Shown: positions 3,009 to 55,447 of the stretch, piece by piece
Numbering within the stretch: position 1 is the stretch's first letter
Layout: every line of letters begins with the position of its first letter
Assembly: GCA_021323955.1 (NCBI GenBank)
Contig: JAJPKC010000561.1
Location: 8,234 to 72,233, forward strand
Length of the DNA: 64,000 nucleotides
Reading direction: 5' to 3'
From: Oscillatoriales cyanobacterium Centralia_MAG_596
GTDB taxonomy: Bacteria; Cyanobacteriota; Cyanobacteriia; Leptolyngbyales; Leptolyngbyaceae
Notes under the pieces: generated by a model
What the model was told of the DNA's origin: nothing
What the model saw: the letters and a program-made list of their open reading frames with translations, nothing else
The model's database searches: none
Translations under genes and position numbers: made by a program

Positions 3009-3314
3009 AAAACCTCAGTAATGTTGACTTTGACGGAGCTAGGGTTTGGATCACCCTGGCTCTTTCTGTTGTCTGGTTTCGAGAAGCACGCCTCACATAG
3101 CTAACGTGTTCGGTAGCTATAGAGGCATTTGTTTATCCCAGATACAGGCATCAAACCAAACTGGTGATGGTAAAAAGTGGGCAGTCTTTGCTGGCACACA
3201 AGATGCACGGCAACTGATGTATATAGGATTGCTTACCTGCTATGCCGTAGACTGAGCAAGTGATACAGCTTGAGGTCATAGACCGGATTTTGTATCAAGT
3301 TCATCCTTTGGAAA

Positions 3315-3325
3315 GGAGGAATGCT
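3315..3325 (+). promoter_or_regulatory. J-box-like motif upstream of recombinase
   Basis: GGAGGAATGCT about 25 nt upstream of GTG 3350. Confidence 0.35.
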
Positions 3326-3349
3326 AAAGAGTCGCATTGCCTAACCTGC

Positions 3350-4312
3350 GTGAGCACTCTAGCCCAAACCAACGCTTCACCCTTTCTGTTCCACGTCACC
3401 GATCGCGATATTCTCGCCGAGCACCTGGCGGACAAGCGGAGCGAGAACACGCGACGGGCATACGCCAGAGACGTGAAAGACTTTTTCGTGACCGTTGCCA
3501 ACCAGGAACCAACACCAACGCTGATTGGGCAGTTTTTGAGCCTGGAACGCGCGGCGGCCATCTCTCTGGTACTGAAGTACAAAGCGATCCTAATTGAGCG
3601 CAATCTGAGCGAGGCCACGGTCAATCGGCGGTTGTCTGCCCTCAAGTCCCTCGTGGCGTTTGCCCAAAAGGTCGATCGCTGCCAGTGGAGCCTGGAGCAA
3701 GTAGAGAGCGAGAAAGTGCAGAGCTACCGGGATACCAGCGGGATTAGTTTAGAGGCCTATCGCAAGCTGCTATCTGTGCCCAACCGAAATACGCTAGCAG
3801 GCAGACGCAATTACGCTATATTGCGGTTGCTCTGGGAAAATGCCCTGCGCCGCAATGAAATCAGCCAGACCAATGTGGGAGACCTGGATATCGAGGCTCG
3901 CACGCTGCAAATTTTTGGGAAGGGGAAGGGCACGCAGGCCGAATCCATCAGCCTCAGCACAGCAACAACAGAAGCGATCGTTGATTGGGTGCTTGCCAGA
4001 GATCCCGTTCCAGCGCCAAACGCCCCATTGTTCGTGGCGCTCGATCGCGCGCATTATGGCCACCGGCTATCGGGGAACGCCATTTACAATTTGGTAGTGG
4101 AGACGGCAACCAGCGCTGGTATTACCAAGCATCTCTCTCCACACCGGTGCCGCCACAGCGCCATCACGGCTGCACTAAATGCTACCAATGGTAATGTGCG
4201 GGAAGTTCAAAAACTGAGTCGCCATGCGCGGCTAGAAACTCTAATGATTTACGACGACAATAGAGCCAACGCCCAGGGCAAAGTCACCAACCTCTTAGCT
4301 GATCTGCTTTAA
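3350..4312 (+). CDS. tyrosine recombinase / integrase (XerC/D-like)
   Basis: SAM-like N-terminus (SENTRRAY, TVNRRLSALKS) and catalytic R (ALRRNEI), K (GKG), HxxR (HRCRH), H (RHA), Y (MIYD); start set at GTG 3350. Confidence 0.92.
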   Translation: MSTLAQTNASPFLFHVTDRDILAEHLADKRSENTRRAYARDVKDFFVTVANQEPTPTLIGQFLSLERAAAISLVLKYKAILIERNLSEATVNRRLSALKSLVAFAQKVDRCQWSLEQVESEKVQSYRDTSGISLEAYRKLLSVPNRNTLAGRRNYAILRLLWENALRRNEISQTNVGDLDIEARTLQIFGKGKGTQAESISLSTATTEAIVDWVLARDPVPAPNAPLFVALDRAHYGHRLSGNAIYNLVVETATSAGITKHLSPHRCRHSAITAALNATNGNVREVQKLSRHARLETLMIYDDNRANAQGKVTNLLADLL

Positions 4313-4757: not shown

Positions 4758-5801
4758 ATGGCATCTGACCTTACGCCTGAATTAACCAAAACTGACTGGG
4801 AAACGCTCAGTGATTTTCGACTGCTGCGGCTGCAGTCGATGTTTGCGGATTTACAACTTTGCCATTTACAGATCTCCTGCCTGACCAACGATCTGCTGTT
4901 AATCTGCGATCGCGCCGCCTGGGATAAGATTCAACCGATTTTGGTTGATCTACGCATGGCGAGCTGGGCCGTTGCAGCCGCTGATAACTTGTCCATTTTT
5001 GTGGATGGACACTTGACTTATTGCGCCATGACGCAATTGCCCCAAACAGTTGAAGTTGTAACACGTACACTGGATACAATCGATTTAAGGATTGATCCTA
5101 TGGTTACTGCAACCCCAACCAGACCTCGCTCCATAAAGCCAGCAGAAAAACAGTTAACAGCCACTCCCGCAGCATCAAATGACCTGCCGGATTTTATTGA
5201 CCTGATGCCATTGGCTCAAAAATCAGGCATTCCGATTGAACACATCGCCGCTGAAATCAAGCAGCTGGGTGGTGTGGCTGGACGTGATCGCACGGGCACT
5301 TACATCACTACCGAGGACGCCCAACGCACCTGGGTTACCAATTACCTGAAGCGACTAGAGGCAGACTTCCTCTTGCCACCACAGGCGGAATCGGTACCAA
5401 GCGTCGAACCAACCGCAAAAGCCGCAAAACCGAGACGTGCTCGCACCGCAGCACAAGACAACGGCAAGGTTATGCCGAAAGAGCGGCGGTTGAAAGACTT
5501 TAGCAAAGCGCAGAGCTACTCAGTCACCATTGGTCGATTCCTGGATGCTCAAGGCTGGGATGGAAGCAACCCTCTGAGAGCACAGGTGTTCGAGGGCATT
5601 GCAGCGCTACCAGACAACTTTATGCCAAAAGCAAAGGGTAGCAGCCTTGCTGAGCGATCGCTCTACAAAATCTTGTCCAAGTATCCAGCTTCCAGTCGAG
5701 CCGCTGCTTGTAAAGGGTTGATCAAAACTGCCCGTGAGACGATTGGTCAGCAGCCCTCTGAGCAACCAGCAAGCCGGCCAGATACAGCCACGGTTGAATA
5801 A
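4758..5801 (+). CDS. hypothetical protein
   Basis: 347-aa ORF followed by a terminator. Confidence 0.7.
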   Translation: MASDLTPELTKTDWETLSDFRLLRLQSMFADLQLCHLQISCLTNDLLLICDRAAWDKIQPILVDLRMASWAVAAADNLSIFVDGHLTYCAMTQLPQTVEVVTRTLDTIDLRIDPMVTATPTRPRSIKPAEKQLTATPAASNDLPDFIDLMPLAQKSGIPIEHIAAEIKQLGGVAGRDRTGTYITTEDAQRTWVTNYLKRLEADFLLPPQAESVPSVEPTAKAAKPRRARTAAQDNGKVMPKERRLKDFSKAQSYSVTIGRFLDAQGWDGSNPLRAQVFEGIAALPDNFMPKAKGSSLAERSLYKILSKYPASSRAAACKGLIKTARETIGQQPSEQPASRPDTATVE

Positions 5802-7092: not shown

Positions 7093-7909
7093 AATGTGTG
7101 TGCCCATTGGTCGTTCCGTTGGGGGTGTTAAGGTTGGCCAAAACCTCAACGGTATACCGTTTATTGCCCGTAAACATTCGCAGCGCCTTGGCGACATAGC
7201 CAATAATGCGGTCATCCACAAAGGCAATTTGACCTTGCACAACATCTCGCAACTCTGCCACATCGGCCTCGTCATTCGCGGGGAAGTGACTCAAAAACTC
7301 GCGAAAACCTTCTTCTGTGGTTGGATCGAGGTTGCGTTCACTCATCTCTGCACGAATTAGCCTACCGACTGCACCGCTCCCTCTACCAATCGCATCCAGA
7401 TCCATTGCTTGCTCCCATCCAGGTGTCTGATTGTGGTATCTGCTGGGGGGCATTTGCGTCCGCAAAGTAGCGGATTTCTCGAAGTCGGCAGTGCCAATGC
7501 GGGCAAATTCGCGCCAGTCGTCTTCGTAAGTGTGGTCCAGGTCGAGCTGGATGTCGTCTCCGTTGATCGCTATCACTCTGAACACAAAAGGGGCAATCGC
7601 TTTAAGCGCCTCAGCTTTCGGTTGCTTAATTGTTGGCGGCGACCCTGCATAACGATTCAACGTACTGCCTGACAAGTGCAGCTCTGGTTGTCCTAGATCT
7701 TTCGCACGTTGCTGAATTTCTAGCCTCAATTTCCGCTCGGTCCATTCGCGCACCTTGATCGATGCACGAATAGCTTTCGCCATCCGCTCTATACCTTCCC
7801 GTGTATAACCTGTCGGTTCTGCGCCGATGTTAACTGAGACTACATTCATAGTTTGCATACGGTCTTTCTTAAGAATACCCTTCTTTTTCATTGTTGTCTC
7901 AAACAACAT
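7070..7909 (-). CDS. putative phage repressor (HTH-like)
   Basis: LSGSTLNRY...PKAEALKAIA resembles an XRE-type helix-turn-helix; divergent from the early operon; true start may be further downstream. Confidence 0.5.
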   Translation of the reverse strand: MLFETTMKKKGILKKDRMQTMNVVSVNIGAEPTGYTREGIERMAKAIRASIKVREWTERKLRLEIQQRAKDLGQPELHLSGSTLNRYAGSPPTIKQPKAEALKAIAPFVFRVIAINGDDIQLDLDHTYEDDWREFARIGTADFEKSATLRTQMPPSRYHNQTPGWEQAMDLDAIGRGSGAVGRLIRAEMSERNLDPTTEEGFREFLSHFPANDEADVAELRDVVQGQIAFVDDRIIGYVAKALRMFTGNKRYTVEVLANLNTPNGTTNGHTHSTPGLGS

Positions 7910-9671: not shown

Positions 9672-12671
9672 ATGACAGCAACCCCTCAGAAGATCAGTCC
9701 CACAGCCCAAATTGACGCTCCAGGCACTATTGCGCTGGAACACTGGCAAGAGTGGCAGGCATCCGGCGTCAGTGGCGAGATCATCGCCGCAAACGTCGAG
9801 ACAATCTACGACATCGAGGTCGATCCTCATTCGCGGGAGCCACGCTACCCGATTCATGAGTTTTTGAACTGGACGGTCACGCGGTTTGGGCGACAGGCGC
9901 GAGAGAACCAGAGAGCATGGACGTTTCGGGGGTTAGACCCGCTTAACAACTGGGAGCGAATGGAGTGGGGATGTCTGAAACTCGATCGCGCGCGTAGCAG
10001 TAAGGGCAAAGAACTCAAGTATGAGCAGCCTGTGGGCAAAGGTTCAGCCAGAGCCTTCTTCGCGGCTGTGCCGAGCAATCCCCGGCTGTGGCTCGAAGCG
10101 CTGACCAACCCGGAGATCCCGATCATCATCACCGAGGGCGCGAAGAAGGGCGCTTGCCTTTTGAGCTTTGGTTTTGTGGCGATCGCCCTGGCCGGGGTCA
10201 GCGGAGCCGTCCGCACGAAAGACATTAGAGGAGAGGCGATCGAGCCTCATCTGATTGCTGATATCGCCATGTTTGCCTGCCCTGGCAGGCGGTTTTACAT
10301 CTGCTTTGATCACGACAGAAAGCCCAAGACCGTGGCCAACGTCAATCGGGAAATCAATAAGCTGGGCAAGCTCTTAAACCGTGCCGGATGCGAAGTCTAT
10401 GTCATCGACTTACCGGGTCCCGAAAAGGGTGTTGATGATTTTATCGTGGTACAGGGTGCAGAAGCCTTCCAGCGCTGCTACGACGCTGCCAAACCGCTGT
10501 GGCAGTGGCAGGTGCATCAGTACAGCAAACTGACCTATCCCGCCAGCCAGCGCGTCAGCCAGCGCTATTTGGGCAAGGTATCGCCGCCGGATAAGGCCAA
10601 GCTGGTTTGCCTCAAATCGCCCAAAGGGACGGGCAAGACGGAAAGTTTTATCGACATCGTGGAGCAAGCCACCCGAACAGGACAGCGCGTGTTGCTCATT
10701 GGGCATCGCGTGCAGCTCGTCCAGGCGATCGCGGACAGGGTAGGGTTGCCCTACGTGACGGAGCTACGGACGGCTGAGCAGGGTTCGCTGCTTGGGTACG
10801 GGCTCTGCGTCGATAGCTTGCACGAATCCTCGCAGGCACGGTTTCATGCGGAGAACTGGAACGACGCGATCGTCATTATTGACGAGTGCGAACAGGTGTT
10901 CTGGCATTTGCTGAGTGCTGACACCGAAGTCCGGAACCATCGGATCGAAATTCTCCAGCAGCTAAAAGAACTGCTGATCAACACGCTGACCAGCCAGGCC
11001 GGACGCATTTATCTTTCCGACGCTGACCTGACCAACCTCAGCATTGACTTCATCAAAGACCTCACCGGGTTACCGCTTCAGCCCTGGTTGCTAGTCAACG
11101 ACTGGAAGCCTCAAGACGAGGCCTGGACAATCCATCACTACAACCAGACCAAGCCTCAAGTCTGGTTGGGACAACTTGACGAGCATATTGGTGGTGGTGG
11201 CAGACCGTTTGTCGTCACCCACTCCCAAAAGGCGAAATCGCTCTGGAGTACGCGCACCCTTGAATCACTGTTGACCCAGCGCCATCCCGACAAGCGCATC
11301 CTGCGGATCGACTCAGAAACCATTGCCGATCCCAATCATCCAGCGTATGGCTGCGTGAGCAACCTCAATGAAGTCTTGCCCAATTTTGATGTGGTGATTG
11401 CCAGCCCCAGTATCGAAACTGGCGTCTCCATCGACATTCGCGGGCATTTCACCAGCGTTTGGGGGTGCTTCCAGGGCATCTGTGCGGAGAACTCGTCTCG
11501 TCAGTCACTCGCACGGGTGAGGGAACCCGTCCCGCGCCATATCTGGATCAGCAAGTATGGACTGGGACGAATTGGCAATGGAGCCGTCAGCCACAAGCTG
11601 CTGATCTACTCGCAAAATCAGCTTGCCTGGGCCAACCTGTCACTGACAAACGGGTCATTCACTCAGGCGATCGCCAATTTTGACCTGGATGAAATAAATT
11701 GCAGTGCGGCTGCAATGGAGTCCTGGTCAAAGTTCGCTGCTCGCATCAACGCAGGCATGGCCCACTACCGTGAGGTCATTCTCTACGGGTTGAAGGGTGA
11801 GGGGCACACCCTCATTGAAGCGATGCCAGCAATCGACCCAGCAGAGCTGGCAGTGACGATCTCCAGCCTCAAAAACGCGCGTGATAGGCAGTACCGGGCA
11901 TGGCGGGAAGCGATTGCCGCAGCCGATGACATCACGCCCAATCAGTATGAGCGGCTCAAGCAACAGAAGGCAAAAAGCCCAGAGGACACAGCCAAAGAGC
12001 GGAAGCATGCCCTGTACGATCGCTACCTCCAACCTGTCACAGCAGAAATCGTCGAGAAAGACGACAACGGCTGGTATCCCAAAATCAGGCTCTACTACTT
12101 CCTCACGCTGGGCAGAGAGTTCCTGCAAGAGCGTGATCGACGTGCTCTCGAGGGAGAGCTACACGACAACAAAGCCTGGTTTCCGACACTAAACCGCTCC
12201 CAGGTAGGCGGTGGCATCAAAATTATGGAGGTGTTAGGCATCACTGACCTGCTGCGACCTGATCGCCTGTTCACCCGCTTTAGCACTACCGTTGCCACGA
12301 TCGCTGACAAAGCACTCTACTATAGCCGCAGCATTCGGGATTTGTTGGGTCTAACCATCACGCCCAAAATGAGCCCGATCCAAATTGTGCAGGCGGTGCT
12401 CGGTAAGTTGGGCAAAAAGTTGAGCTATGTCGGGAAATTCACGCCCGACCAACGCGAGGAACGGTTTGATCTGCCAGACAACTTTGAGTGGCCCGAAGAC
12501 ATCCGATCGTATAGCCAGCGCTGCTACAGCTACCTGAATGTTGATGACGGGAGGGCTGCGGTTTACGAGGCGTGGCTCAACCGAGACCTAACTCATAATG
12601 AGTACGGACAGGACACCCCTTCTTTAAAAGATCAAGATCAGCAGGGGTGCCCCGCAGGAGGTGCTGCGTGA
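9672..12671 (+). CDS. CyRepA1-family primase-helicase replication protein (DUF3854)
   Basis: Toprim-like IITEGAKK, CFDHD, KGVDD; Walker A SPKGTGKT; Walker B IIDECEQ; SF2-like C-terminal motifs. Confidence 0.9.
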   Translation: MTATPQKISPTAQIDAPGTIALEHWQEWQASGVSGEIIAANVETIYDIEVDPHSREPRYPIHEFLNWTVTRFGRQARENQRAWTFRGLDPLNNWERMEWGCLKLDRARSSKGKELKYEQPVGKGSARAFFAAVPSNPRLWLEALTNPEIPIIITEGAKKGACLLSFGFVAIALAGVSGAVRTKDIRGEAIEPHLIADIAMFACPGRRFYICFDHDRKPKTVANVNREINKLGKLLNRAGCEVYVIDLPGPEKGVDDFIVVQGAEAFQRCYDAAKPLWQWQVHQYSKLTYPASQRVSQRYLGKVSPPDKAKLVCLKSPKGTGKTESFIDIVEQATRTGQRVLLIGHRVQLVQAIADRVGLPYVTELRTAEQGSLLGYGLCVDSLHESSQARFHAENWNDAIVIIDECEQVFWHLLSADTEVRNHRIEILQQLKELLINTLTSQAGRIYLSDADLTNLSIDFIKDLTGLPLQPWLLVNDWKPQDEAWTIHHYNQTKPQVWLGQLDEHIGGGGRPFVVTHSQKAKSLWSTRTLESLLTQRHPDKRILRIDSETIADPNHPAYGCVSNLNEVLPNFDVVIASPSIETGVSIDIRGHFTSVWGCFQGICAENSSRQSLARVREPVPRHIWISKYGLGRIGNGAVSHKLLIYSQNQLAWANLSLTNGSFTQAIANFDLDEINCSAAAMESWSKFAARINAGMAHYREVILYGLKGEGHTLIEAMPAIDPAELAVTISSLKNARDRQYRAWREAIAAADDITPNQYERLKQQKAKSPEDTAKERKHALYDRYLQPVTAEIVEKDDNGWYPKIRLYYFLTLGREFLQERDRRALEGELHDNKAWFPTLNRSQVGGGIKIMEVLGITDLLRPDRLFTRFSTTVATIADKALYYSRSIRDLLGLTITPKMSPIQIVQAVLGKLGKKLSYVGKFTPDQREERFDLPDNFEWPEDIRSYSQRCYSYLNVDDGRAAVYEAWLNRDLTHNEYGQDTPSLKDQDQQGCPAGGAA

Positions 12672-17842: not shown

Positions 17843-18260
17843 CCGGATTCCAGATGAGCTGAGCCGCGCAGTCTATCAGCGATTGATCAAAAGCCGCGAG
17901 TTCGATACGTTTGTGCTGCAAATGATTTGGCAACGGCTGGCGTTGCAAACAAAAGAGATCCTGGAATGCTCCAAAACCTGGTATTTCGGTGAAATTGGTG
18001 TCGAGCCTGGCTGGTGTGTCCCCGCACTTGTAGTGCTGTTTGAGAATGCAGCACTGCTGGCAAAGGAGCAGTTTGGGGCCAACCTGATTGATCTGGCCGA
18101 GCAGTGCCAGTCCGTTTGCAAATGCGATCGCGTCCACGTCATCGGGTGCGATACTGGGCTGCGACTGTGGTTTGACTATCACACCAGCACATGGGTACGG
18201 GCTTCAATGACGTTGCCCGCAGACTGGCACCGGGAGGGCAGCCGCGATGCCGATGGATAA
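17832..18260 (+). CDS. hypothetical protein
   Basis: Coupled ORF. Confidence 0.6.
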   Translation: MDVNRIPDELSRAVYQRLIKSREFDTFVLQMIWQRLALQTKEILECSKTWYFGEIGVEPGWCVPALVVLFENAALLAKEQFGANLIDLAEQCQSVCKCDRVHVIGCDTGLRLWFDYHTSTWVRASMTLPADWHREGSRDADG

Positions 18261-18693
18261 AACTCGCTACCCGGCTAACTGGACTGAGATCGCGCTAGAA
18301 ATCAAGCAGGCCGCGCAGTGGCGGTGTAAGTCATGCGGCAAAGACTGCTTGCGACCTGACGATAATTTGGGAACGTTTATCGAGCGGATTCGCACGCAAC
18401 GGGTTTCAGAATGCCCCGTTGTTGCCGAATTTTTAGAGCATCCCCGGCGCTGGTTATTGACTGTTGCCCACCTCGATCAAGACCCTGGGAACAACGATCG
18501 CCGCAACCTCAAAGCGCTGTGCAGTGTTTGCCACCTCAACCACGATCGCCCGTTTCAAGCGGCCAACCACATGACGAAGCTGGAGCGAACCATCGGGCAG
18601 CTCAACCTCTTTGACCTCCGACCACCGGAGCCAGCCGGGAAGGGTGAGAGGTCAGATCGCATCCAAATTCCGCTACGTCAGGAGGTTGGCTGA
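18247..18693 (+). CDS. HNH endonuclease-like protein
   Basis: RCKSC...LTVAHLDQDPGNNDRRNLKALCSVCHLNHD. Confidence 0.8.
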   Translation: MPMDKTRYPANWTEIALEIKQAAQWRCKSCGKDCLRPDDNLGTFIERIRTQRVSECPVVAEFLEHPRRWLLTVAHLDQDPGNNDRRNLKALCSVCHLNHDRPFQAANHMTKLERTIGQLNLFDLRPPEPAGKGERSDRIQIPLRQEVG

Positions 18694-20597
18694 TGATTGC
18701 CGCTCTACCCTCAAACCTTAAACAAGCATCCGTGCTGGTGCCGTCGGTGCTGGTCATCGGCGATCGCACTCGCTATTACCACCCAGCTCCAATCGAACGG
18801 CTAACAGTGGCATCCGAAACACCGACGATGCTACGCGTGGCCGGACATAAAAACATCTTTCAGCACAAAGCCTACTGCATCCCCTCTGACACCGAATGGT
18901 TTGAAGGCACGCAACGTCACGACCAGTTCAAGCAAGCGCTAGACGAGCTGGCAAGCTACCTCATGCGACTGGGCAGCTATGCCAAGAATCTGGCCGCTGC
19001 CGGTGGCATCAAGCAAGCGCCTAACCCGCTCACATCCACTGTGATTAGTTGCAAAGACCCAGAAACTGACAACGGTGGATTAACCCTTAATCTCCCCTGG
19101 TACCTCTACACAACCGAAATCCGCTACACACTGGTAACGCACACGCCGAAGATGTTGCGCTACATCTATCCGGGCAGCAGCTATGAATCCATCACCACGC
19201 AGAATGATACCTTTTGCTGTCCCGATGATGCGGCCTGGGAGCAATTTCAAGCGCTGAGACAGGCCGCGATCACGGCATCCAATCACCTTCAGGACTATCT
19301 CAAACAACTCGGCACCTATCAGGAGGCAAAGCAAGATGGACGTTACAACACCAACGGCAGAGCGTATCCAAACCGTGTTGATGAACCTACTCCGGCAGAA
19401 ACCGCGTGCTCTGGAGGAATTGCACCAGCAGATGAACCACTTGCCAGCAGCGCAAGTAACGGAACAACTGGCGCTGCTGGCTCAAAAGAGAGCAGTGAAA
19501 CTGAAAGACAATCTGTATTATCGGTGCAACCCACAGAACTAAGACCGGGCGATCGCGGTTCCATCAGCAGACCAAGACTTGAAGTGGAAAACACAGCAAC
19601 AGTCGCGTCGGAGACAGCGGTGGGGGACTTCGTAGAACTCTACCGCAGCGAAAGCGGCGAGGAACTGCCAGAAACACAGCGCCGACGGGGAAAAGTGGTC
19701 GAGACCTTTGGCCAGAGCTTCCTGCGGGTTCACTATCGAGGGGAGACGTTTGCTGGTGGCAAAGACCAGGCGCAACGGTTTCGTAAGCTGCCCGATCGCG
19801 ACCCGCTGCCTTACCCCACTCAGCCCGTGCGAGCTGCCAGCCGGGGAGAAGAAGTGGTTGTCACAGCGCCAGATAACCCCTGCTATGGCGAAATCTTCAC
19901 CGTTCATGCCGTTTCCATTTTTGGCGTGTTTCGAGCAGATAATGACTTCTTCTACGATGAAGAATTGGGTTACCGGGTTGATGAGGACGATCCATACATT
20001 CAGCCAGTTTCACCTAATCGAGACGAGGCGTTTACGGTCACGCTCGAGCCTGGTGACTTGGTGCAGGTGATGGCTGACGACGATTTGTATGAAGCGATCG
20101 TCACCGTCTATCGCAATCTCCCCACTTTTGAAGTCGAAATTGATTATCAAGGACTGCTCCTCGCCTATCCCCGACATAGCCTCAGACTGTATGAACGAGC
20201 AACGCCAGAGTCACTCGCCTATCTCGCATCGAGGCATTCCATTCTTGCTCCCACAGAACCAACGTTGCAGCAGAGACGGGAAGACCTGTTGGCTCAGATA
20301 GATCGGATCCGTCAATCGGGCCCTGTAGCACCAGCAGGAGCTGAGTGGAAGCGCTACCGCAAAACTAAGACCATTGGGAAAGGCGATCACGCTCAAACCG
20401 TGACATACCCAACGGACGGTGGTTACTACTACACGGTCTGGCACCGTGATGCTATTTTCATGAACCAGGGCAAGCTAGTGAAATCCCTTCAGGTCGGCAC
20501 AAACGGTTCAGATAGCTACAAAGACTGGCAGCAGCGTTTCGAGCGCAGACGGGCGATTAAACAGTTACAGAAGGAGTTAAGCGCGATTAGTCAGTAG
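18693..20597 (+). CDS. large multidomain hypothetical protein
   Basis: 634 aa; duplicated N-terminal module and several KOW/SH3-like GDxV segments. Confidence 0.7.
   Translation: MIAALPSNLKQASVLVPSVLVIGDRTRYYHPAPIERLTVASETPTMLRVAGHKNIFQHKAYCIPSDTEWFEGTQRHDQFKQALDELASYLMRLGSYAKNLAAAGGIKQAPNPLTSTVISCKDPETDNGGLTLNLPWYLYTTEIRYTLVTHTPKMLRYIYPGSSYESITTQNDTFCCPDDAAWEQFQALRQAAITASNHLQDYLKQLGTYQEAKQDGRYNTNGRAYPNRVDEPTPAETACSGGIAPADEPLASSASNGTTGAAGSKESSETERQSVLSVQPTELRPGDRGSISRPRLEVENTATVASETAVGDFVELYRSESGEELPETQRRRGKVVETFGQSFLRVHYRGETFAGGKDQAQRFRKLPDRDPLPYPTQPVRAASRGEEVVVTAPDNPCYGEIFTVHAVSIFGVFRADNDFFYDEELGYRVDEDDPYIQPVSPNRDEAFTVTLEPGDLVQVMADDDLYEAIVTVYRNLPTFEVEIDYQGLLLAYPRHSLRLYERATPESLAYLASRHSILAPTEPTLQQRREDLLAQIDRIRQSGPVAPAGAEWKRYRKTKTIGKGDHAQTVTYPTDGGYYYTVWHRDAIFMNQGKLVKSLQVGTNGSDSYKDWQQRFERRRAIKQLQKELSAISQ
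19336..19542 (+). CDS. nested out-of-frame winged-helix-like protein
   Basis: AGGAGG at 19321-19326, 9 nt before ATG; helix-helix-helix-wing pattern; host frame here is low-complexity linker. Confidence 0.5.
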   Translation: MDVTTPTAERIQTVLMNLLRQKPRALEELHQQMNHLPAAQVTEQLALLAQKRAVKLKDNLYYRCNPQN

Positions 20598-20626
20598 CAC
20601 CAAAGCTTTTATTAATTACTTGGTTG

Positions 20627-20657
20627 ACAGCACTGGCAAGGTCAGTGCTGTTTTTTT
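20627..20657 (+). terminator. intrinsic terminator ending the early operon
   Basis: ACAGCACTG-N7-CAGTGCTGT followed by a T run. Confidence 0.85.
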
Positions 20658-20842
20658 GTTTGCTTAAATAACTAAATTTTTATTTTTTGCAATCCCTGCG
20701 CTGTGCCTACAGCTATAGCTTGCTAAGCATTTCCGATTAAATCAGTTGATCAACTAACTCAATTTAAAGCCAACTCTCCACTTGCATTGAAAGGGCAGTG
20801 GAAGGTATTTAGAAGCAGCTACTCAATAGTAATTAAAAACAA

Positions 20843-45976: not shown

Positions 45977-48900
45977 CTAATAACTGGGCTGTGACCGTAA
46001 TGCATTGCCTGTTTGCCGATTCTGGTAGTCGGCATAGCTTTCAACCGGATCCGTCGCGTGGAAGGTCAGCGATTTGGGGTTGCCCATGTCCTGCCGCATT
46101 AGTTCAATCACCATGTCTAGGCGTTGAGTTACCGCCGAGGTCAGGCTATCAAAGAAAGAACCCAGTCGATCGCCCGTCGAACCTGATGCTTCGACCACAC
46201 CGCTGCTGCGATCAGGAGCGGGCGTACTGGGTTGTGGTGAGAACGACGATCGGGTATCGCGTAACCCCCGATCGTCGTTGTAGTATCCTCCACGACGAGC
46301 ATAGTTGCCCGACTGCACACCATAGTTAGTCTGCACGCCACCACCGTTCAGCACCTTGTCTGGGTCTAACCCTGCTTCAACTCGTTCAGTAGCTTGACTG
46401 ACGGTGAGGTTTTGTTGCTCCTGGGCAGTTTGAGCAAAGGCTGTGTCACGCTCGACGTCGAATTTAGCTCTGGCATTCGCCTCCAGCTCACCGATTGCAG
46501 CGACCCCTTCCTGCGCTCCAGCAGTGTTTTGCTTGGCTAAGTCATAAGCTTGAAGAGAAGAATCCAGGTTGTCTTTCGCTTCAGCAATTTTTTCAGGATC
46601 GCCATTCTGAATGGCTTTCTTGAGTTCTCCTGTGCTCTTGGTGAAATCCTTTTTCGCGTTCAACTCCGCAATTTGAGCCTCTCGATATGCCTGCTCTGCC
46701 TGCAAGCGATCGCGCTTGAGATCCAATTCTAGAAGCTGTTGTTTGATGGCATATTCGGTTTGCAGCGCTCTTTCTTTAATGGCGGCAAGGTTCTTTTCAG
46801 CCGCCTCCTTTTGGTCAAGTAACCGTTCCCGATCGGTATCATCGTCGCCAGAAGGTTGAAAGCCCTGGGCACGTAAAATCTTTCGATAACCTTCCTGTTT
46901 ATTTGGGTCCTGTTCCTGGGTCGATTTGTTGAAGAGATCCAGGATTTTCGATGCACTGTCCGCCGCACCTTGCGCGATTGTCTGGTTGTAAGCAGCGACC
47001 GCCTGCTGCAAATCACCCCGGCTCTGCGTTAATTTGCGAGTGATTTCAAGTGATTGGTTAATACGGTCGATCGCTGCCTTCTGGCGCTCGTAGCCACGAA
47101 TGGCCACATTGTCAGCGCGATTTTGGGCATTGACTTGCTTATCAATTTCGCGGTTGTAAATGTCCTGAAGCTGTTTCTGGCGCTGGATTTGGAGATCTAC
47201 AAGTTTGCCATTGCTCTCTGCTAACTGCTGGTTAAACTCCAGCAATTTTTGCGTTAGCTCTTTACCAGAAATTCGTTTTTCAGCGGCGGCTCGCTTATAG
47301 TCAACAATCTCCTTTTGCAATAGCTGAGAACGCTGCTGGGTGGCTCTTTCATCTACTCCGGTTTGTTCCAGATCAGCTTGCTTTTGGGCATCGTCGGTTA
47401 GCCCTGCTGCCAGGAATTTTCGCTTAACCGCAGTCGATTGGTTAGTTTCTGATAGTTGAATAGCGGCGGCGGCTTTTGCATTGGCTAACTCCAACCCTTC
47501 AATGATTCTACGGTTGGTCGCTTCCACCTTCTTTGCCAGTGCCTCCTCCACCGTCGCCGCCGCGTTAGCTTTTTCAACGCGCAGGTCTGCCAACTGTGTC
47601 GTCAACTCACGTTGGCGCTTGTTAAACTCTTCAGCGCTGAGCTGGTCTTTCTTGGCATTTAACTCCTCCAAGGACTGCTGCGTGTTGTCGGTCTTCTGAT
47701 CGATTGAAGTAGCTTGATTTTGAGCAGTCTTAATGCCAATGTCCGCTTCTGCTACTGCGGCATCTGACTCGCTGAAAAATTTGTTATTGGCCTTGTCTCG
47801 TGCCAGGTCAGCGCTGGCCTGACGCACTGGAACAGCACGGGCATCGTCATCCTGCTTGAGCTTCTGGTCGCGCTTCGTTGCATCGCGATCGAGCACAGCC
47901 AGTGTATTTGTTTGAACCTGATCCTGCACCTTCAAATCAGCTTCGTCCAAATTGACCTGCAAATCACCGCGCTTCTGTTGCAACTCCTTGAAGTTCAACA
48001 ATTGCTGGAGCAAGGTGCGTTTGGCCTTTCCAGAATCGTCTTGGGGTGTGGCTTCTAGCTCTTTTTTAATATCTTCAATCGAATTATCTTTACTGACGCC
48101 AAACCCCCTCAACGCGGCTTCGTTTTCAGGTCGATCAAGCAATGTCCCGCCATCTTTCAATGCCTTATCAGTACTGTCCAAATTTTGTTGGATACCCTGA
48201 CGGTCGGAAATTGCATTGCTGAGTGCGGCGCTGCGGGCCGCGTCCTCATCGGTACCAAACGTTTTGAGTTGACCCTTGAGAATGAAATCTTTCTGTTGAC
48301 TGACGAAAAGTTTCGTTGCACGTTCGGCACTCTCGATCGCTGCTGCCAAATTTCTGAAGCCGTCGGTCATACCCAAAATGGGATCGACCTTCAGTGACCC
48401 CAATTTTTCCTCAGCCTGATTCTTAAAGTCGGTGACGTCTTTGAGCGATTGCTGGAGCTGCTTACGCCGTTCCTCCGTTTGAGCTTTATTGCCAAAATGC
48501 CCTTCATTTTTGGGGTCATCCAGCTCTTTCAACTTTGACTTGTAAGCGTCGATCAGTTTATTAGCTGAGTTCAGGTCGTCAGTAAATGGCTTCGCTGCGT
48601 CACCGCGCTTGTCCACAAGGCTCTGAATGTTAGTGTTGGCATCCTGAAGCTGTTGTTGAAGCGCCGCCGGAATGGTCTTTCCTTTGCGGGTATAGTCTTG
48701 CTCCGCTTGGGCTTGCAGACTCTTACGCTGCTGTTCAGCATTCTGAAGCTGTTGATCAATCGCCTGTAAATCAGCCCCTTCTCCGGTTTTAGTGTCCAGG
48801 GTTGTGAGACGAGCACGACCTTTAGATAGGAGTTGACCTGTTTCACTGACTGATTTATCGATGTCACCACCGACGCGATCACGCTCCACATCGCCAAAGT

Positions 48901-51900
48901 TGCGGAAGGTCGTTTTACTGCCAACAAGCTTGGGATGATTTGGATCGCTGAAATCAATATTGCCGCGGGTCAAAACGTCTAATGGTCCTGCTAACGGCGC
49001 GGGCTTTTCGGCATCTTCTTTTGCCTCCTGCTTCGAGTTGTCCGGTTTTTCTGGTTGTCCGGGAAGTTTCACCTCTTTTGAGTTGTCAGCCGCCCGTTTG
49101 GCAGAATCGGCTAAGTCATCAAACGACTTCACCAACTCGGTGTTAATGGTTTCGGACAATAATCTGAAATATTCAATCAGCGCAAAAATGCCCACAGCAC
49201 CAATGACGGCTTTCGAGGTGTTGAGCGTTTGAAAGAACGATTGCAATCCTCCAATCGCAGTGCCAGTAGCTGCTTTGGTGAGAATTAAATCACCAATCAA
49301 TTTAAATAGTGCGGGTGCCGTTTGGACACCAATGGTGAGGGCGATCGCCGTTAGCCCTGCAATGATCTCAGGCGCGATCGCTGTCACTCCTTGCAGCACC
49401 GATGTGAGGATTTTGAATCCAACCACTGACCCTGGCTGCAACTCCTTACCAACAGTTTGCTGGAGGGTTAGGTAAGCGTTTTGAAATCTGAAAATCGCGC
49501 TCTGTGCATTGTCGCCAGCCGTTTTGGCTGCGTCACCAAATTCGGCTTGTAGCTGCTTTCCGAATCGGGGTAGAAAATCATCTGCCAGCAAAGAGCCCGT
49601 TTCGAGCATCTTGTTCAACTGGGCCTCGGTGACCCCCATTGCTCGTGCTGCAATGCCTAATGCTCCGGGAATGCGTTCACCTAATTGCCCCCGTAGCTCC
49701 TCAGCCTGGACGGAGCCTTTGGACGCAATTTGGGTCAGCGCTGACAAGGAACCACCTGTCTGTTCAGCGGATAGCCCCAACACAGTGGAAGCTTGCTCAA
49801 TCCCTAAAAAGACATCTTTGGTCGTTTTGCCCGCTGCGGCTGTGCCCCGTGTTGCCGCCGAGAGTTGGCTAAAACCTTCAATAGATGATTCTAATGGCGT
49901 CCCCAAGTCCGCCACTGTCTTGCGAACAAACTCCAGACTCTGAGTGCCCTGGCTAGCACCCCCCACAGAAAAATCGAGCGCTGTTTTGAGGTTGTCCAAC
50001 TTGATGGATGCGTTGATTGCATCGGCGGATAGCCCCTGGAAAAGCTGCTGGATTGAACCAATAACCTGGAAGCCGATCGACTGCACTAATTGCAGCCCCA
50101 CAAATCCAGCCAAAAATCCAGCGGTAGCCCCTTTTGCTTTCTCTAAAAGGTTAGATAGGGTTGCTAAACCACCGGGATTAGTAGGTGCCGGACGATCGAG
50201 CAGTGCATAGACACTCCGCAACTCCTTGCTGAACCCTTGCAGTGCCGAAATATCTTTGCTGGTCACTTGTGCAGCAGGTTTTGCCAGAATGGCTTCCGAA
50301 CCAGCAATGGCTCGTTCAGTGCGATCGCCTGCTTTTCGTAGCCGCGTTTCCTGGGTTCTGTCGCCCGATCCTTTTGCAACCGCCTGGCCGGTACGGATAT
50401 CGTTCAACAGGCTCTTGCTTTCAACAGCCAGCGCTTCAGCATCCTTTGCAACAGCGGCGCGAATATCAGCCTGAACACCTTTCAAGACATTTCGTAAGGT
50501 GCTAAACACACCCTTGAAGTCATCACCGGCGATCGGGTCTTCAATGCGTGTTAAGCCTGGATCAGCCGCTTCCCCGGTTTGGCGCTCTAACTCAAAGGCG
50601 CGACGTTTGTTTGCTCGCAGATCTTGCTGGTTTTCGCCAATGACTTGCTGCGACTTTGCCTGGGTGCCGTCATTAATCGCCCGGTCTGCCAGTAGCCCAA
50701 AGTCAGGTCGAGCAGCGGTCTTAGCGGCAATACGTTGCCCGATCTCCAGCAGCTCCTGATTGGCGCGAGTCATCTCCGCATCAAACGTTTCGTTGATGAT
50801 CTCCCCACGTTCTTCTAGCAGTCGTTCAACGGTTTGGTTGAGCTGATTGAGTGCCCGAATCTCCTGTTTGCCTGCATGTCCGGCGTAGTCTTTATCGCTG
50901 GAGAGCGCCAGGGCTAGATTGTCAATCGTGTCTCCAAGTTGCTTCTCCAACTGCGAAAGCAACTGTCGAGATTTGCTGGTAAGAGTGCGTTTTAGCCCAG
51001 TTGCACCGCCAACCAGATTGGCCGACTCTAAATCTTCGCCGCTTGCCTTCGCTTCATCGTCCTCTCCCAACCGGCCCTGGATGCGTTGCCGCAATTTGCT
51101 CAATTGAGGAACGGCTGCCAGTGCAACTGCTGCTCCTTTGAGCGGCACCCCGCCCAACCCTGGAATAGCACCCAATGCTGCGGCTGAAGCGTTCCCGATC
51201 GCAAATCCAGCCAGGTCGCCGAACAACTCATCCCCCTGCCCGTGCTGTCCTCCTGAAAGGACATGCCGTGCCGTGATCGCCCCAATCAAATCGCCTGCGG
51301 CTCCACCAACTGCCCCACCAAAGTGGTTGCCTGCTACCGATGCCGCAAAGCCTGCCGTATTGACCAGCAAATCTCGCCCTTTGGGAGTGTTCGCGGCTTT
51401 TTGCAGTGTGGCCGGCAACGTTGCCTCTGGTTCAATTTCAGCAAAGCGAGCAACCTCGCGTCCGATAGTTTCGGCGAGGCTGTGTTGTGCCTGATTAAAT
51501 CGCTCGATCGCAGCACTCAGTTCGCGGTTGACCGCTTGCCCACCTTCACGCAGCGATGCCAGCAAGTTGGCTGCATTCAGGTCATCGCCTGCGGAAACAT
51601 CGACGACTGTAGCGTTAACGGTTTGAAAGTTTCGTGAAGTGCTGCCCTGACGTTGGGTCTGCTGAATTTGTTGGCGTGCCACGTCACGTGCTTCTGCCCT
51701 GGGTGCTTCCGACTTTTGAATCGCCTGTGTCCGAAAACCTGAGAGCTGTTGGGCAGTCCTGCCTTCAATCTGGTATTGCTTGAATGCGTCTTCAATTGCG
51801 GCAACCTGTTGATCCGAAGCCGTTGCTAGTGCTTGAGCGATCGCAACGCGTTCCTGTCCCTGCGCCGCCTGGAACTGTTTGTAAAGCTGCTTGATCTTGT

Positions 51901-54900
51901 CATTCGACTTTTGAATCGCCGTGAGCGCTGAGGCTGGCAATGTTGGCACAGCCGCGCTTTTAGCCCCATCTTGAAACGCTTTGAGTTTCGCACTGTCACC
52001 AACTTCAGCTAATACCTTGTCGATCGACACGCCAAAGTCAGTAAACGCTAACTCGCGCGCCAGGTCTTCTTTCTTCAGGCTCCTCGCCCGTGAACTGGTA
52101 ATACCAACGCGCTTGGCAATCTCGCGCAAACCAGCGGCGGAATACTGGCTATTGAGTTCTTCAAACCGCTGTTCTTTGCCGCTGGGACTCGATACGACTT
52201 CAACTTGAGGGCTTTGAGCTGATGCAGGCGACGGCGGCAACGCGGTAATGGCGCTCTCAGGTGTGTTAGCCGGTGCTGGAGGAAGTGCTTTTGCCTGGGT
52301 TGGAGGAAGTGCTGCTAAATTGTTAACCGCTTGCGCTGCGCCACCCAATGTGCGACCCGCAGCCGTTTGAATGACTTTGCCACCCAGCAGGGCCGCACCA
52401 GCCTGAGCCACTCCGGCTGAGGCCGCGTTAACGGCACTATCAATCGCCCCTGTCAGCGCTGTGGTAATGCCGTTCGCCAATCCAAACGCATTAGGCACAT
52501 GACCTGCGATCGCTGACGTTGCTGCGTCGGTTGCCCCTGCACCGGCTGCATGGAGTAACGGCGATGCCACTCCGCCAACGACATGACTCAGCCCTGCTGC
52601 GACACTCGCACCACCGGGAAGTAATGCCGTTGCGCCCGCAAACAAGGCGGCAGGCACAACCGTTTGTTGGGCGATCGCTTTGATTGCTCGTCCGGCTGGA
52701 ACAAGATCCAGCGCCAGGGCTTCCATGCCGGACGCAACGGTATAACCCACCTTCCCAACAGCCAATAGCGCCTTGCCTGCGGTTCCTGCTGCCTGTACTG
52801 CATTTTGCACAGGTGCAGAGGTTGCTATGTCCTGGACTTTGCTGGCTGTCGCGCCTGCCAGTTCAACGGCTCCTCTGGCAACGCCCCCGGCTGTTTGAGC
52901 CAGTGCCGCACGTTGTTCCTGCCGCTCTAATTGCTGCTGTGCTTTGGTTCTAGTCAGTTCAAAAACTTTTGGCTCTAACTGCCTGGGGTCAGCGGTTGTC
53001 GTTAGCTGCTGAATTAGCTCCTTTTTCTTAAGAGAGCCAGCATCTTGGACGCCAAATTGCTCCGCCAGTGGCGTTAGCTCTTTCTTACTAAATTGCTTGA
53101 GCAGTCCAGCAAGTTCCTGCTGCCGCTCTTGGAGTGCGTCTTCAGGAGCGATCGCCTGCACGCGTTGAATCTCGCTTCGCACCTGGTCGAAGATGTGGCT
53201 GAGGGAACCGATCGCCTGGTTCATTTCTTCCTGCAATGCAGCAACTTCTTCGCGAGTTGCCGTGCCTGCCGATTGGGCCGCTCTTTGAGAAATTGATTCG
53301 ATCTCGGTGAGCGACTCTTTGTAGCTGTCGATGAACTGGCCGATTGCCTCATCCGATTCCACAAATCGCTTTGAGGCTTCTTGTTTAAGGGTGATCAGTG
53401 CGTCTTTGAAAACCGCCTTGCGTGCAGGAGCCGTAAACTTCTCACCCTGAACTGCCACATCGCTGGCATCGCTGATTGCTTGCAGCCGATCCTGCCGTTG
53501 CAGGTAATCTTCGGCCCCCCTTGCGCCCTTGACTTTGGCGTTTAGCTCTGCCTCTCGTTTTTCGGGTGCATACCGCCCTAGCTCTGGTGCAAACCTGGTT
53601 GCTTCTTCGGCTGTAGGAGTAACTTTGCGCCCGATCGGACGGCTATCTTTCGCTGCCTGGATGCCCTTGAAAGACCCAAAATCGAAGTCTTCAGCGTGGG
53701 CAATCTCTTCCCCTAATACCTCTGCCTGTTGCTGCGTTAGGGATGCGCTTTTGACCGCCTCATAAATTTTGTTGGTCGTGATGATGGCATTTTCAGCCGG
53801 GACGTAAAGTGACCCTGCGCCAACGGCTTTAAGCCGCGCTTCGTCAACAACTAATTTGGGCAGTTTGTCAGCATCAAAGGCTTCACCAAGCGTGCTTTGA
53901 GCCAGTTCGGCGTAAGCCCTGGACTGTTGCTGCGGGCTAACCTGATCGAGTTGTTGTCGTGCGGCAAGGCGTTTCTGCTTTGCCTCTTGCACGGCATTGG
54001 TGGCAATATCCCGTGCCTGTACCAGTGCAGTGAGGGACTGCGATAGCTGCTGAAAGTCCTGTGCTGTGGCATTAAGTTGAGCGGCTAATGGTTCAATGTC
54101 TGCAACCTTAGCCCCGCCTGCCTCCGCTTTCTGAATGGCGATCGCGAGCTGCTCGTATTGTTGCCCTACTTCTGCAACCTCTCGCTGTCTGACGGCAATC
54201 TGCTGTTCTAATGTGGCTTTGCTCTGTGTAGCGCGAGCTTCGACACTTTTGCTGGTGGCGATCGATTCACGAAATTCGGTAACTGCTTCCTCTCTCAAGA
54301 CAGGAGTTTTGGCTTGCTCCGTCTGCCTACGCTGCCCCCGCTGGAATAATCCTTCCCGATTGATATTGTCTTGACCGATCGTCCCTTGAACGGCTTGCCC
54401 AACTTGCCCAGGCAGCTCAACCACTGACTGAAGCTGTTCTCGCAGTTTGGTTCGTAGTTTGCCGTCCTGAATTTTGTCGATCTGCTGTTCCAGTACCTGA
54501 GCCAGGTTCTGAGTTTGAGTTTGAAACTCCTGCACTACGGCAGAACCGATTGCACCCCCAACCTTCTCCCCCAACAGTTCGGAACTGCCAACGCTCTTAG
54601 ACAGTGCTCCTTCCAGTGCGGTAGACAGTCCCTTACCCAAATTCCGCGAGACTTCCTGGGTGGCTCCTAGCGTTAGACCACTCAAGGTAGTGCTCAAAGC
54701 GCCGCCTGCCAGCTTGAGCGGAGCCGTCAGCACACTGCCTAATCCACTGAGTAATCCTCCACCCTTAACCCGCTGAAATGCTCGTTCAACGCTGTTACCC
54801 AGCGAGTCTTCAATGCCCTTCGTGTCAATCTCAACCTTTTGGGTCAGAGCTGCTAAGGGTTGGGCATTGGCGTAGCGGAGAACCACTGGCACATCTAAGG

Positions 54901-55447
54901 TGCCGATCTGCGATCGCAGATCGGCGACATTGACCTGTGCGTCAATGGTGACTTTATAGCTACTGGTCTGGAACGATTGCAGCCGTCGCTCCAGGGCGTC
55001 TAGTTGCTGAAAATCAACTCGCGGTGTTAGCGGGGAGCTTTTGAAATAGGCATTGACTTGAGCAAAGTGCCTTTGCTTGAGGTCTAAATGTTTGTTGAGG
55101 GCCGTGAGCTGGCTATCATCAACCAGCGCCGACAGCTTTAGAGTCCGTTCCCCTGCAAAGCGTTTGAGTTGCTGTTCCGCTGCGGCCGTATCCAGTCTGG
55201 CGGTGACAACAACTGTGGCACTGAATGCCTGCAACTGTTTCTCTAGGGCGCTAGTATCGGCACGTAGCCCTACAGTGAGTGGATTAAGAGCGATTCCCTT
55301 AAGCTGGCGTTCAAGTTGCTGAAGGTTGAGATTCACCCCCAACGCGATCGGCTTCAGCGCTAGCGTCTCTAGATCGCGCAGATCACGATTGAATCGACTC
55401 CGATCTAACTGCAACTCAATCGCAGCACTGCCAACGACTTCACTCAT
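45977..55447 (-). CDS. tape measure protein, multidomain (3156 aa)
   Basis: Tape-measure domain IKLDNLKTAL..GSVQAEELRGQLGERIPGALGIAARAMGVTEAQLNKMLETG; N-terminal VGSAAIELQLDRSRF; long coiled coils. Confidence 0.92.
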   Translation of the reverse strand: MSEVVGSAAIELQLDRSRFNRDLRDLETLALKPIALGVNLNLQQLERQLKGIALNPLTVGLRADTSALEKQLQAFSATVVVTARLDTAAAEQQLKRFAGERTLKLSALVDDSQLTALNKHLDLKQRHFAQVNAYFKSSPLTPRVDFQQLDALERRLQSFQTSSYKVTIDAQVNVADLRSQIGTLDVPVVLRYANAQPLAALTQKVEIDTKGIEDSLGNSVERAFQRVKGGGLLSGLGSVLTAPLKLAGGALSTTLSGLTLGATQEVSRNLGKGLSTALEGALSKSVGSSELLGEKVGGAIGSAVVQEFQTQTQNLAQVLEQQIDKIQDGKLRTKLREQLQSVVELPGQVGQAVQGTIGQDNINREGLFQRGQRRQTEQAKTPVLREEAVTEFRESIATSKSVEARATQSKATLEQQIAVRQREVAEVGQQYEQLAIAIQKAEAGGAKVADIEPLAAQLNATAQDFQQLSQSLTALVQARDIATNAVQEAKQKRLAARQQLDQVSPQQQSRAYAELAQSTLGEAFDADKLPKLVVDEARLKAVGAGSLYVPAENAIITTNKIYEAVKSASLTQQQAEVLGEEIAHAEDFDFGSFKGIQAAKDSRPIGRKVTPTAEEATRFAPELGRYAPEKREAELNAKVKGARGAEDYLQRQDRLQAISDASDVAVQGEKFTAPARKAVFKDALITLKQEASKRFVESDEAIGQFIDSYKESLTEIESISQRAAQSAGTATREEVAALQEEMNQAIGSLSHIFDQVRSEIQRVQAIAPEDALQERQQELAGLLKQFSKKELTPLAEQFGVQDAGSLKKKELIQQLTTTADPRQLEPKVFELTRTKAQQQLERQEQRAALAQTAGGVARGAVELAGATASKVQDIATSAPVQNAVQAAGTAGKALLAVGKVGYTVASGMEALALDLVPAGRAIKAIAQQTVVPAALFAGATALLPGGASVAAGLSHVVGGVASPLLHAAGAGATDAATSAIAGHVPNAFGLANGITTALTGAIDSAVNAASAGVAQAGAALLGGKVIQTAAGRTLGGAAQAVNNLAALPPTQAKALPPAPANTPESAITALPPSPASAQSPQVEVVSSPSGKEQRFEELNSQYSAAGLREIAKRVGITSSRARSLKKEDLARELAFTDFGVSIDKVLAEVGDSAKLKAFQDGAKSAAVPTLPASALTAIQKSNDKIKQLYKQFQAAQGQERVAIAQALATASDQQVAAIEDAFKQYQIEGRTAQQLSGFRTQAIQKSEAPRAEARDVARQQIQQTQRQGSTSRNFQTVNATVVDVSAGDDLNAANLLASLREGGQAVNRELSAAIERFNQAQHSLAETIGREVARFAEIEPEATLPATLQKAANTPKGRDLLVNTAGFAASVAGNHFGGAVGGAAGDLIGAITARHVLSGGQHGQGDELFGDLAGFAIGNASAAALGAIPGLGGVPLKGAAVALAAVPQLSKLRQRIQGRLGEDDEAKASGEDLESANLVGGATGLKRTLTSKSRQLLSQLEKQLGDTIDNLALALSSDKDYAGHAGKQEIRALNQLNQTVERLLEERGEIINETFDAEMTRANQELLEIGQRIAAKTAARPDFGLLADRAINDGTQAKSQQVIGENQQDLRANKRRAFELERQTGEAADPGLTRIEDPIAGDDFKGVFSTLRNVLKGVQADIRAAVAKDAEALAVESKSLLNDIRTGQAVAKGSGDRTQETRLRKAGDRTERAIAGSEAILAKPAAQVTSKDISALQGFSKELRSVYALLDRPAPTNPGGLATLSNLLEKAKGATAGFLAGFVGLQLVQSIGFQVIGSIQQLFQGLSADAINASIKLDNLKTALDFSVGGASQGTQSLEFVRKTVADLGTPLESSIEGFSQLSAATRGTAAAGKTTKDVFLGIEQASTVLGLSAEQTGGSLSALTQIASKGSVQAEELRGQLGERIPGALGIAARAMGVTEAQLNKMLETGSLLADDFLPRFGKQLQAEFGDAAKTAGDNAQSAIFRFQNAYLTLQQTVGKELQPGSVVGFKILTSVLQGVTAIAPEIIAGLTAIALTIGVQTAPALFKLIGDLILTKAATGTAIGGLQSFFQTLNTSKAVIGAVGIFALIEYFRLLSETINTELVKSFDDLADSAKRAADNSKEVKLPGQPEKPDNSKQEAKEDAEKPAPLAGPLDVLTRGNIDFSDPNHPKLVGSKTTFRNFGDVERDRVGGDIDKSVSETGQLLSKGRARLTTLDTKTGEGADLQAIDQQLQNAEQQRKSLQAQAEQDYTRKGKTIPAALQQQLQDANTNIQSLVDKRGDAAKPFTDDLNSANKLIDAYKSKLKELDDPKNEGHFGNKAQTEERRKQLQQSLKDVTDFKNQAEEKLGSLKVDPILGMTDGFRNLAAAIESAERATKLFVSQQKDFILKGQLKTFGTDEDAARSAALSNAISDRQGIQQNLDSTDKALKDGGTLLDRPENEAALRGFGVSKDNSIEDIKKELEATPQDDSGKAKRTLLQQLLNFKELQQKRGDLQVNLDEADLKVQDQVQTNTLAVLDRDATKRDQKLKQDDDARAVPVRQASADLARDKANNKFFSESDAAVAEADIGIKTAQNQATSIDQKTDNTQQSLEELNAKKDQLSAEEFNKRQRELTTQLADLRVEKANAAATVEEALAKKVEATNRRIIEGLELANAKAAAAIQLSETNQSTAVKRKFLAAGLTDDAQKQADLEQTGVDERATQQRSQLLQKEIVDYKRAAAEKRISGKELTQKLLEFNQQLAESNGKLVDLQIQRQKQLQDIYNREIDKQVNAQNRADNVAIRGYERQKAAIDRINQSLEITRKLTQSRGDLQQAVAAYNQTIAQGAADSASKILDLFNKSTQEQDPNKQEGYRKILRAQGFQPSGDDDTDRERLLDQKEAAEKNLAAIKERALQTEYAIKQQLLELDLKRDRLQAEQAYREAQIAELNAKKDFTKSTGELKKAIQNGDPEKIAEAKDNLDSSLQAYDLAKQNTAGAQEGVAAIGELEANARAKFDVERDTAFAQTAQEQQNLTVSQATERVEAGLDPDKVLNGGGVQTNYGVQSGNYARRGGYYNDDRGLRDTRSSFSPQPSTPAPDRSSGVVEASGSTGDRLGSFFDSLTSAVTQRLDMVIELMRQDMGNPKSLTFHATDPVESYADYQNRQTGNALRSQPSY

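Follow-up and report, generated by a model that had tools for sequence, protein, structure and literature searches.

In a cyanobacterial prophage, a 68-codon gene for a winged-helix-like protein lies wholly inside a 634-codon early gene and is read in its +1 frame. We consider it probable that two proteins are made from this same DNA on the early-operon mRNA, and that the overlap arose by the engulfment of a winged-helix (wHTH) gene. A sister wHTH family, found both stand-alone and nested in other cyanobacterial prophages, points to how this may have come about.

The 64,000-nucleotide stretch that was analysed, hereafter the window, belongs to a temperate phage in a 6.96-Mb genome that shares its family with Leptolyngbya sp. 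AN10. On the minus strand are the major head and portal genes, together with a 3,156-codon ORF at 45977-55447 which is probably a tail or tape-measure-type gene. The ORF at 18693-20597, here called the host gene, is the last gene of a rightward early operon, where it follows an HNH gene, whose stop its start overlaps, and precedes a terminator-like hairpin. The features referred to below are:

3260-4312, integrase gene
9672-12671, DUF3854 primase-helicase gene
18247-18693, plus strand, HNH endonuclease gene upstream of the host gene (phrog_1571, E 2e-22)
18693-20597, plus strand, host gene for a 634-aa modular prophage early protein (full-length homologues; flank dN/dS 0.07-0.21)
18693-19349, plus strand, host N-terminal domain with two internal repeats and a DGRY motif at its end (alignment A7)
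19321-19326, plus strand, Shine-Dalgarno (SD) site AGGAGG of the nested gene, the same bases forming host Q-E-A codons
19335-19541, plus strand, host linker (aa 215-283), the putative overprinted frame (dN/dS, stop avoidance, composition)
19336-19542, plus strand, nested gene for a 68-aa winged-helix-like protein, +1 frame to the host (conserved frame, dN/dS, HxlR profile match)
19524-20207, plus strand, host SH3/KOW-like repeats with EL[KR]xGDR-type starts (fold inferred from the motif)
20250-20594, plus strand, host C-terminal domain
20626-20652, plus strand, terminator-like hairpin at the operon end (consensus match only)

The host protein is assembled from modules that are also found in other combinations. 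Its N-domain consists of two ~100-aa repeats, is common to cyanobacterial and high-GC phages, and exists as a stand-alone 235-aa form in Leptolyngbya sp. AN10. The number of SH3/KOW-like repeats differs among relatives, and the Pfam SH3 matches obtained in homologues were only weak. The C-terminal domain of ~115 aa has no Pfam match. Its profile matches the hosts of other nested wHTH genes, at whose ends it is found (E 1e-14 for L111 and 1e-9 for L114), and several genomes of the family encode the domain on its own, as a small separate gene (L003-L008, L033-L040). Neither terminal domain had an informative match in Pfam, PHROGs, PDB or the ESM Atlas, and tblastn with the host against the GenBank phage and plasmid collections gave zero matches. 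Because host-type modules recur in early phage proteins beside DUF3102-like parts or parts that we take to be ParB-like, our best guess is that the host protein has an accessory role in phage DNA metabolism.

About 150 bp after the host stop, between convergent operons, lies a palindrome of ~20 bp (20740-20759) with an invariant TTGATCAA core. It is found in all four close phages, described below (the window's own; L013 ~7485-7505; L019 ~5160-5180; L017/L020, at 4503-4522 in L017 and 2344-2363 in L020), where its arms vary yet remain palindromic and are perfect in L017 and L020, and it was not seen in L015 or L021, which carry another type of wHTH. We regard the palindrome as a candidate site for a dimeric DNA-binding protein or recombinase.

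The initial annotation had pointed to an AGGAGG 9 nt before the ATG at 19336, to the peptide read in this alternative frame and to the nesting of the small ORF in the 634-aa ORF, all of which are correct as read from the sequence, the +1-frame ORF ending in TAA (19540-19542) well before the host stop. Across the whole genome an upstream AGGAGG was found for only 3 of 2,439 out-of-frame ATG ORFs of at least 60 aa inside long ORFs, which is more than chance expectation for the nested ORF, the sole AGGAGG-led ORF of that class within the window. With an anti-SD sequence that we assume from general knowledge, the pairing energy of the nested SD is -10.3 kcal/mol. None of the host gene's 15 other +1 ATGs has as strong a pairing, and the value lies among those of ordinary genes in the operon (-8.9 to -14); the host gene has its own SD (-11.5). 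The GAG-GC of the nested SD is also found in a stand-alone N-domain gene without a nested ORF, and no sigma-70-like promoter was found near the nested start. The nested ATG is built from the GAT-GG of the host DGRY motif, and the nested stop from the first EL[KR]-type host motif. Synonymous changes are scarcer in the ~22 host codons that lead up to the nested ATG (19274-19335): 9 of the 19 residues that are invariant there vary synonymously, compared with 71 of 97 across the N-domain. No conserved RNA structure was found in this stretch. Assembly error was ruled out, as identical DNA is present in two other assemblies and the same layout in diverged phages. The window's own genome yielded no paralogue of the 68-aa peptide.

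Protein searches with the peptide itself found no relatives, its two matches being unrelated repeat proteins, and relatives of the nested gene were reached solely via host-gene searches. These led to the close phages L013 (778-aa host), L017/L020 (624 aa) and L019 (669 aa), with ~75% nucleotide identity where this was measured. In each of them the nested ATG, stop and frame are all kept, the ATG inside host D-G codons and the stop in the motif opening the next host module, and the open +1 frame of 62-67 codons, at 51-60% identity, has an SD 9 nt upstream. The SD reads AGGAGG in the window, L017/L020 and L019, AAGAGG in L013, and GTGAGG in the more distant L021. Indels among the four close phages come in threes.

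Frame-specific dN/dS had been suggested in the initial annotation as a check, and conservation of only the long frame among homologues, together with the lack of a wHTH match, as grounds for giving up its claim. Within the overlap dN/dS was 0.21-0.45 for the small frame and 1.06-1.86 for the host frame, such that purifying selection acts on the small frame and it is this frame, not the long one, that is constrained. On either side of the overlap the host frame is itself under strong constraint (dN/dS 0.07-0.21), with third codon positions the most variable. Variable columns fall at host codon positions 1/2/3 in the ratio 43/32/21 (of 61) in the overlap, compared with 199/145/414 (of 533) in the flanks (chi-square p 1e-8). 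The frame-specific dN/dS values, together with this one-base shift of variable positions, lead us to conclude from sequence comparison that the small ORF is a selected protein-coding gene.

Searching Pfam with the peptide gave HTH_9/HTH_20-type matches, all below cut-off, and its neighbours in the ESM Atlas were small proteins of 61-67 aa (0.93-0.95) and a DUF2582 wHTH cluster (0.92). A profile of the four close peptides matched the HxlR profile over 44 columns (78%) with a score of 30, compared with a maximum of 19.5 in 200 shuffles, and the window peptide beat 500 of 500 shuffles in the same comparison, which was picked after a weak match had been seen. As in the HxlR/ArsR/MarR regulators, helix 1, a P-x-x-x-EL turn, the recognition-helix leucines and a terminal Tyr can be aligned with HxlR; unlike them, the nested protein has only 68 aa, lacks the HxlR C-terminal part, falls below all Pfam cut-offs and is encoded by a gene inside a gene. 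HxlR (PF01638) was absent from Pfam hits to E 1 and the peptide scored 15 bits on a local HxlR profile, by which measures the small protein is not an HxlR family member. The initial annotation had described three helices plus a wing. AlphaFold2, given one or two sequences as input, returned the three helices (8-21, 23-33 and 38-64; pLDDT 81), but helix 3 was extended and the beta wing absent, and fold searches of these models with Foldseek and VIA-align gave no clear match. A winged-helix fold is likely, an assignment which for the exact peptide draws on sub-threshold Pfam matches and the profile match rather than on a match to a solved structure, and the most probable role of the nested product is that of a small phage regulator that binds DNA.

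More distant hosts harbour another type of wHTH at the same kind of site. Those of L021 and L015, the latter a prophage of Leptolyngbya FACHB-541, share their N- and C-domains with the window's host (about 37-44% identity), and each nests a +1 ORF, which in L021 starts in the same host D-G codons and in L015 follows an inserted SH3-like module. The L015 nested protein exceeds the HTH_24 cut-off (E 5e-7) and has been deposited as a wHTH protein (MBD1995168.1), its host frame as WP_242042077.1; judged by sequence, the nested products of both loci are clear wHTH proteins. A search of 300 cyanobacterial genomes with these two proteins, which was blind to the host frame, found four nested copies, each read +1 to a long ORF of 302-988 codons whose chance of being open is 0.03-0.11, and five stand-alone copies, with stops in that frame or without a covering ORF. 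The four nested hosts lack the N-domain and have SH3-like, C-terminal or DUF3102-type modules in common with the window's host family. They start 4-28 nt before the nested start, three with SDs of -9 to -14 and one with the two starts in ATGCATG behind a single SD. Nested wHTH genes of six distant cyanobacterial prophages occupy the same kind of site, directly before SH3-like repeats, and stand-alone wHTH genes in L072 and L076 are preceded by an HNH gene, as is the window's host.

One of these loci carries both forms side by side. At L114:3456-3926 (G645) two tandem wHTH paralogues follow an HNH gene, the first stand-alone and the second nested; the host and nested ATGs are 4 nt apart with one SD, and the host ATG overlaps the stop of the first paralogue. 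The sister family (alignment A10) matches HTH_24, MarR, ArsR, FaeA and Z-alpha structures. Comparison of the window-type peptide with A10, using shallow profiles, gave shuffle-level scores, and because the two are unlinked by profile the slot may hold either one fast-diverging gene or two captures. Protein searches found no stand-alone relative of the window-type peptide, and it is on the strength of the sister family that a stand-alone ancestry is proposed for it. A collection of 15 billion proteins contains neither the window peptide nor four of the five nested counterparts that were looked up. A nested wHTH is absent from the high-GC N-domain homologues (L023-L026), and at L023:1609-3735 and L026:3385-5445 the N-domain is fused in frame to other modules; the L023 junction, AAGGAGGA-spacer-ATG (K-E-E-P-M), in which AAGGAGGA is an apparent SD, looks like a read-through scar.

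The small frame could also be reached from the N-domain, by a programmed +1 frameshift near its end that would produce an N-domain-wHTH fusion instead of a free 68-aa protein. This would fit the length of open +1 frame that precedes the ATG in the close loci (26-85 codons), the reduced synonymous variation in the last 22 host codons before it, and the in-frame fusions of the same N-domain to other modules in high-GC relatives. However, the ATG is present in all six N-domain loci and the SD in five, the frame is open for just eight codons upstream in L015, neither a conserved slippery run (by eye) nor a conserved RNA structure was seen, and in the four other hosts, which also nest a wHTH, there is no N-domain from which ribosomes could shift. 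We consider frameshifting unlikely, and internal initiation at the nested ATG the better account of how the small frame would be read.

The composition of the host frame over the overlap (57% S/G/A/T/E and 14% hydrophobic, compared with 33-35% and 31-33%, respectively, in the flanking domains) bears out its initial description as an S/G/A/T/E linker. Across six loci, a T that would be synonymous in the small gene and create a stop in the host frame occurs at 0 of 52 positions, while other T-capable positions have it at 47 of 233, and the third frame of the overlap contains 3-8 stops. Under synonymous recoding, the host frame stays open in 5-16% of cases per locus. The joint chance of an open host frame is 6e-4 for the three loci that came from DNA scans without a length filter, a joint probability that overstates the case because kin are not independent, although synonymous sites are already about half diverged. 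L019 and L021 came from a length-filtered search, which favours open host frames. In all, the host frame is open across the overlap in ten distinct loci (six N-domain loci and four other hosts). A comparison with split versions had also been proposed, and no close split forms were found among shorter proteins. On this evidence the host linker is kept open yet is without amino-acid constraint.

An accidental join would also leave the linker unconstrained: only the small gene would then be real in the overlap, and the 634-codon ORF would merely connect an N-domain gene with a gene for the SH3 and C-terminal domains. A host-frame dN/dS of at least 1, the existence of both terminal domains as stand-alone genes elsewhere and the 5-16% chance that a single locus is open are all compatible with it. 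It is at odds with the absence of stops in six N-domain loci and four other hosts while the third frame has 3-8, with large insertions after the overlap that remain in frame, and with the failure to find a conserved SD-led start for the downstream part or close split forms among shorter proteins. We give this explanation slightly less credence than frameshifting, and prefer to regard both frames as translated.

According to the reading we favour, ribosomes starting at 18693 would produce the 634-aa protein and read 19335-19541 as an unconstrained, hydrophilic stretch that separates the SH3-like repeats from the N-domain, whereas others would load at the internal SD at 19321 and make the free 68-aa winged-helix protein, which would bind DNA and probably regulate phage transcription. 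As for its origin, a stand-alone wHTH gene may once have stood in front of an SH3-repeat gene, which then extended 5' through the other frame of the wHTH gene; in the window's lineage an N-domain gene would subsequently have been fused in front. The order of events, the translation of both frames and the DNA binding are all inferred. Three states are extant, i.e., stand-alone, covered by a 5' extension, and covered with the N-domain added, which suggests engulfment as the most likely origin of the overlap, and long phase-1 overlaps are known to arise by 5' extension of the downstream gene (PMC2542354). Since these states coexist and the N-domain is found stand-alone and fused in frame elsewhere, the greater age most likely belongs to the winged-helix gene, and the overprinted frame would be the linker. 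The initial annotation spoke of an overprinted winged-helix gene; overprinting appears to have taken place, but of the host linker, as the wHTH frame is the constrained and probably the older one. The annotation had also offered true dual coding and an ancestral stand-alone wHTH gene bridged by read-through as alternatives, and the evidence points to the two together, given purifying selection on the small frame, a long frame that is kept open, and a sister wHTH family that occurs both stand-alone and nested.

Overprinting usually proceeds in the opposite direction, and the linker might have come first, with the winged helix arising de novo from its +1 frame. In favour of this, stand-alone relatives of the window-type peptide went undetected, the peptide was found only in this host, and the host DG and EL[KR] motifs provide its ATG and TAA for free. 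The peptide nevertheless follows an ancient fold pattern, the linker is without amino-acid constraint, and in other phages the same slot is taken by a bona fide wHTH family, some of whose members stand alone; furthermore, a de novo overprinted frame is expected to be the less constrained and more disordered one, which describes the host linker and not the wHTH. We find this direction more doubtful again than an accidental join. That the small ORF is a chance by-product of host codons can be dismissed as very improbable, for although the +1 frame would be open by chance with a probability of 0.08-0.68 given the linker peptide, substitutions concentrate at small-frame third positions and such an SD is rare (3/2,439).

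Beyond engulfment at a single locus, a tentative possibility, to which we give somewhat less than an even chance, is that the arrangement is a mobile two-frame module that has been shuffled among early proteins and captured at least twice from different wHTH subfamilies. Such a module would consist of the winged helix in the +1 frame and the spacer in frame 0, directly before an SH3-like repeat, and in its simplest form would have one ribosome-binding region and starts 4 nt apart. If true, it would represent an extant stepwise series from a stand-alone gene to a fully nested gene.

Nested out-of-frame genes are already known, e.g., Rz1, comS and the HBV spacer. In lambda, Rz1 is embedded in the +1 frame of Rz, and spanin genes can have embedded, overlapped or separated architectures (PMC6139136). 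As in the window, the embedded spanin gene is a same-strand, +1, wholly enclosed phage gene with its own start, separated versions exist, and annotation often misses one of the frames. In contrast to the window, where the host frame appears to be a bare spacer and the small product is a predicted soluble wHTH protein, both spanin frames are functional in the shared DNA and their products form a complex. The spanin survey found no family with both embedded and separated members (PMC6139136), whereas one wHTH family here has both stand-alone and nested members. The spacer of the HBV polymerase over gene S has been described as a de novo linker frame over an older gene (PMC8227390). It resembles the window in its proposed origin, as a linker frame that joins two flanking domains into one protein, but that proposal came from codon usage, and the virus is a eukaryotic one under size constraint; in the present case the setting is a large dsDNA prophage and candidate intermediates are extant. 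Out-of-frame internal initiation has also been described for comS in srfAB of Bacillus and rpmH in rnpA of Thermus (bioRxiv 10.1101/520783). These too are small proteins begun at an internal out-of-frame site of a longer gene, but they are chromosomal and experimentally shown, while the window's case is predicted from sequence and recurs in varied host architectures. Our literature search for this arrangement in cyanobacterial prophages found neither the module nor the stand-alone-to-nested series.

There are few worked examples of conserved, fully nested same-strand genes in bacteria or large phages, and gene callers discard such genes. As stand-alone, 5'-engulfed and N-domain-fused states coexist, both the origin of a nested gene and the question of which frame is older become testable. 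For this group of cyanobacterial prophages, the nested gene would add a probable, as yet unannotated regulator.
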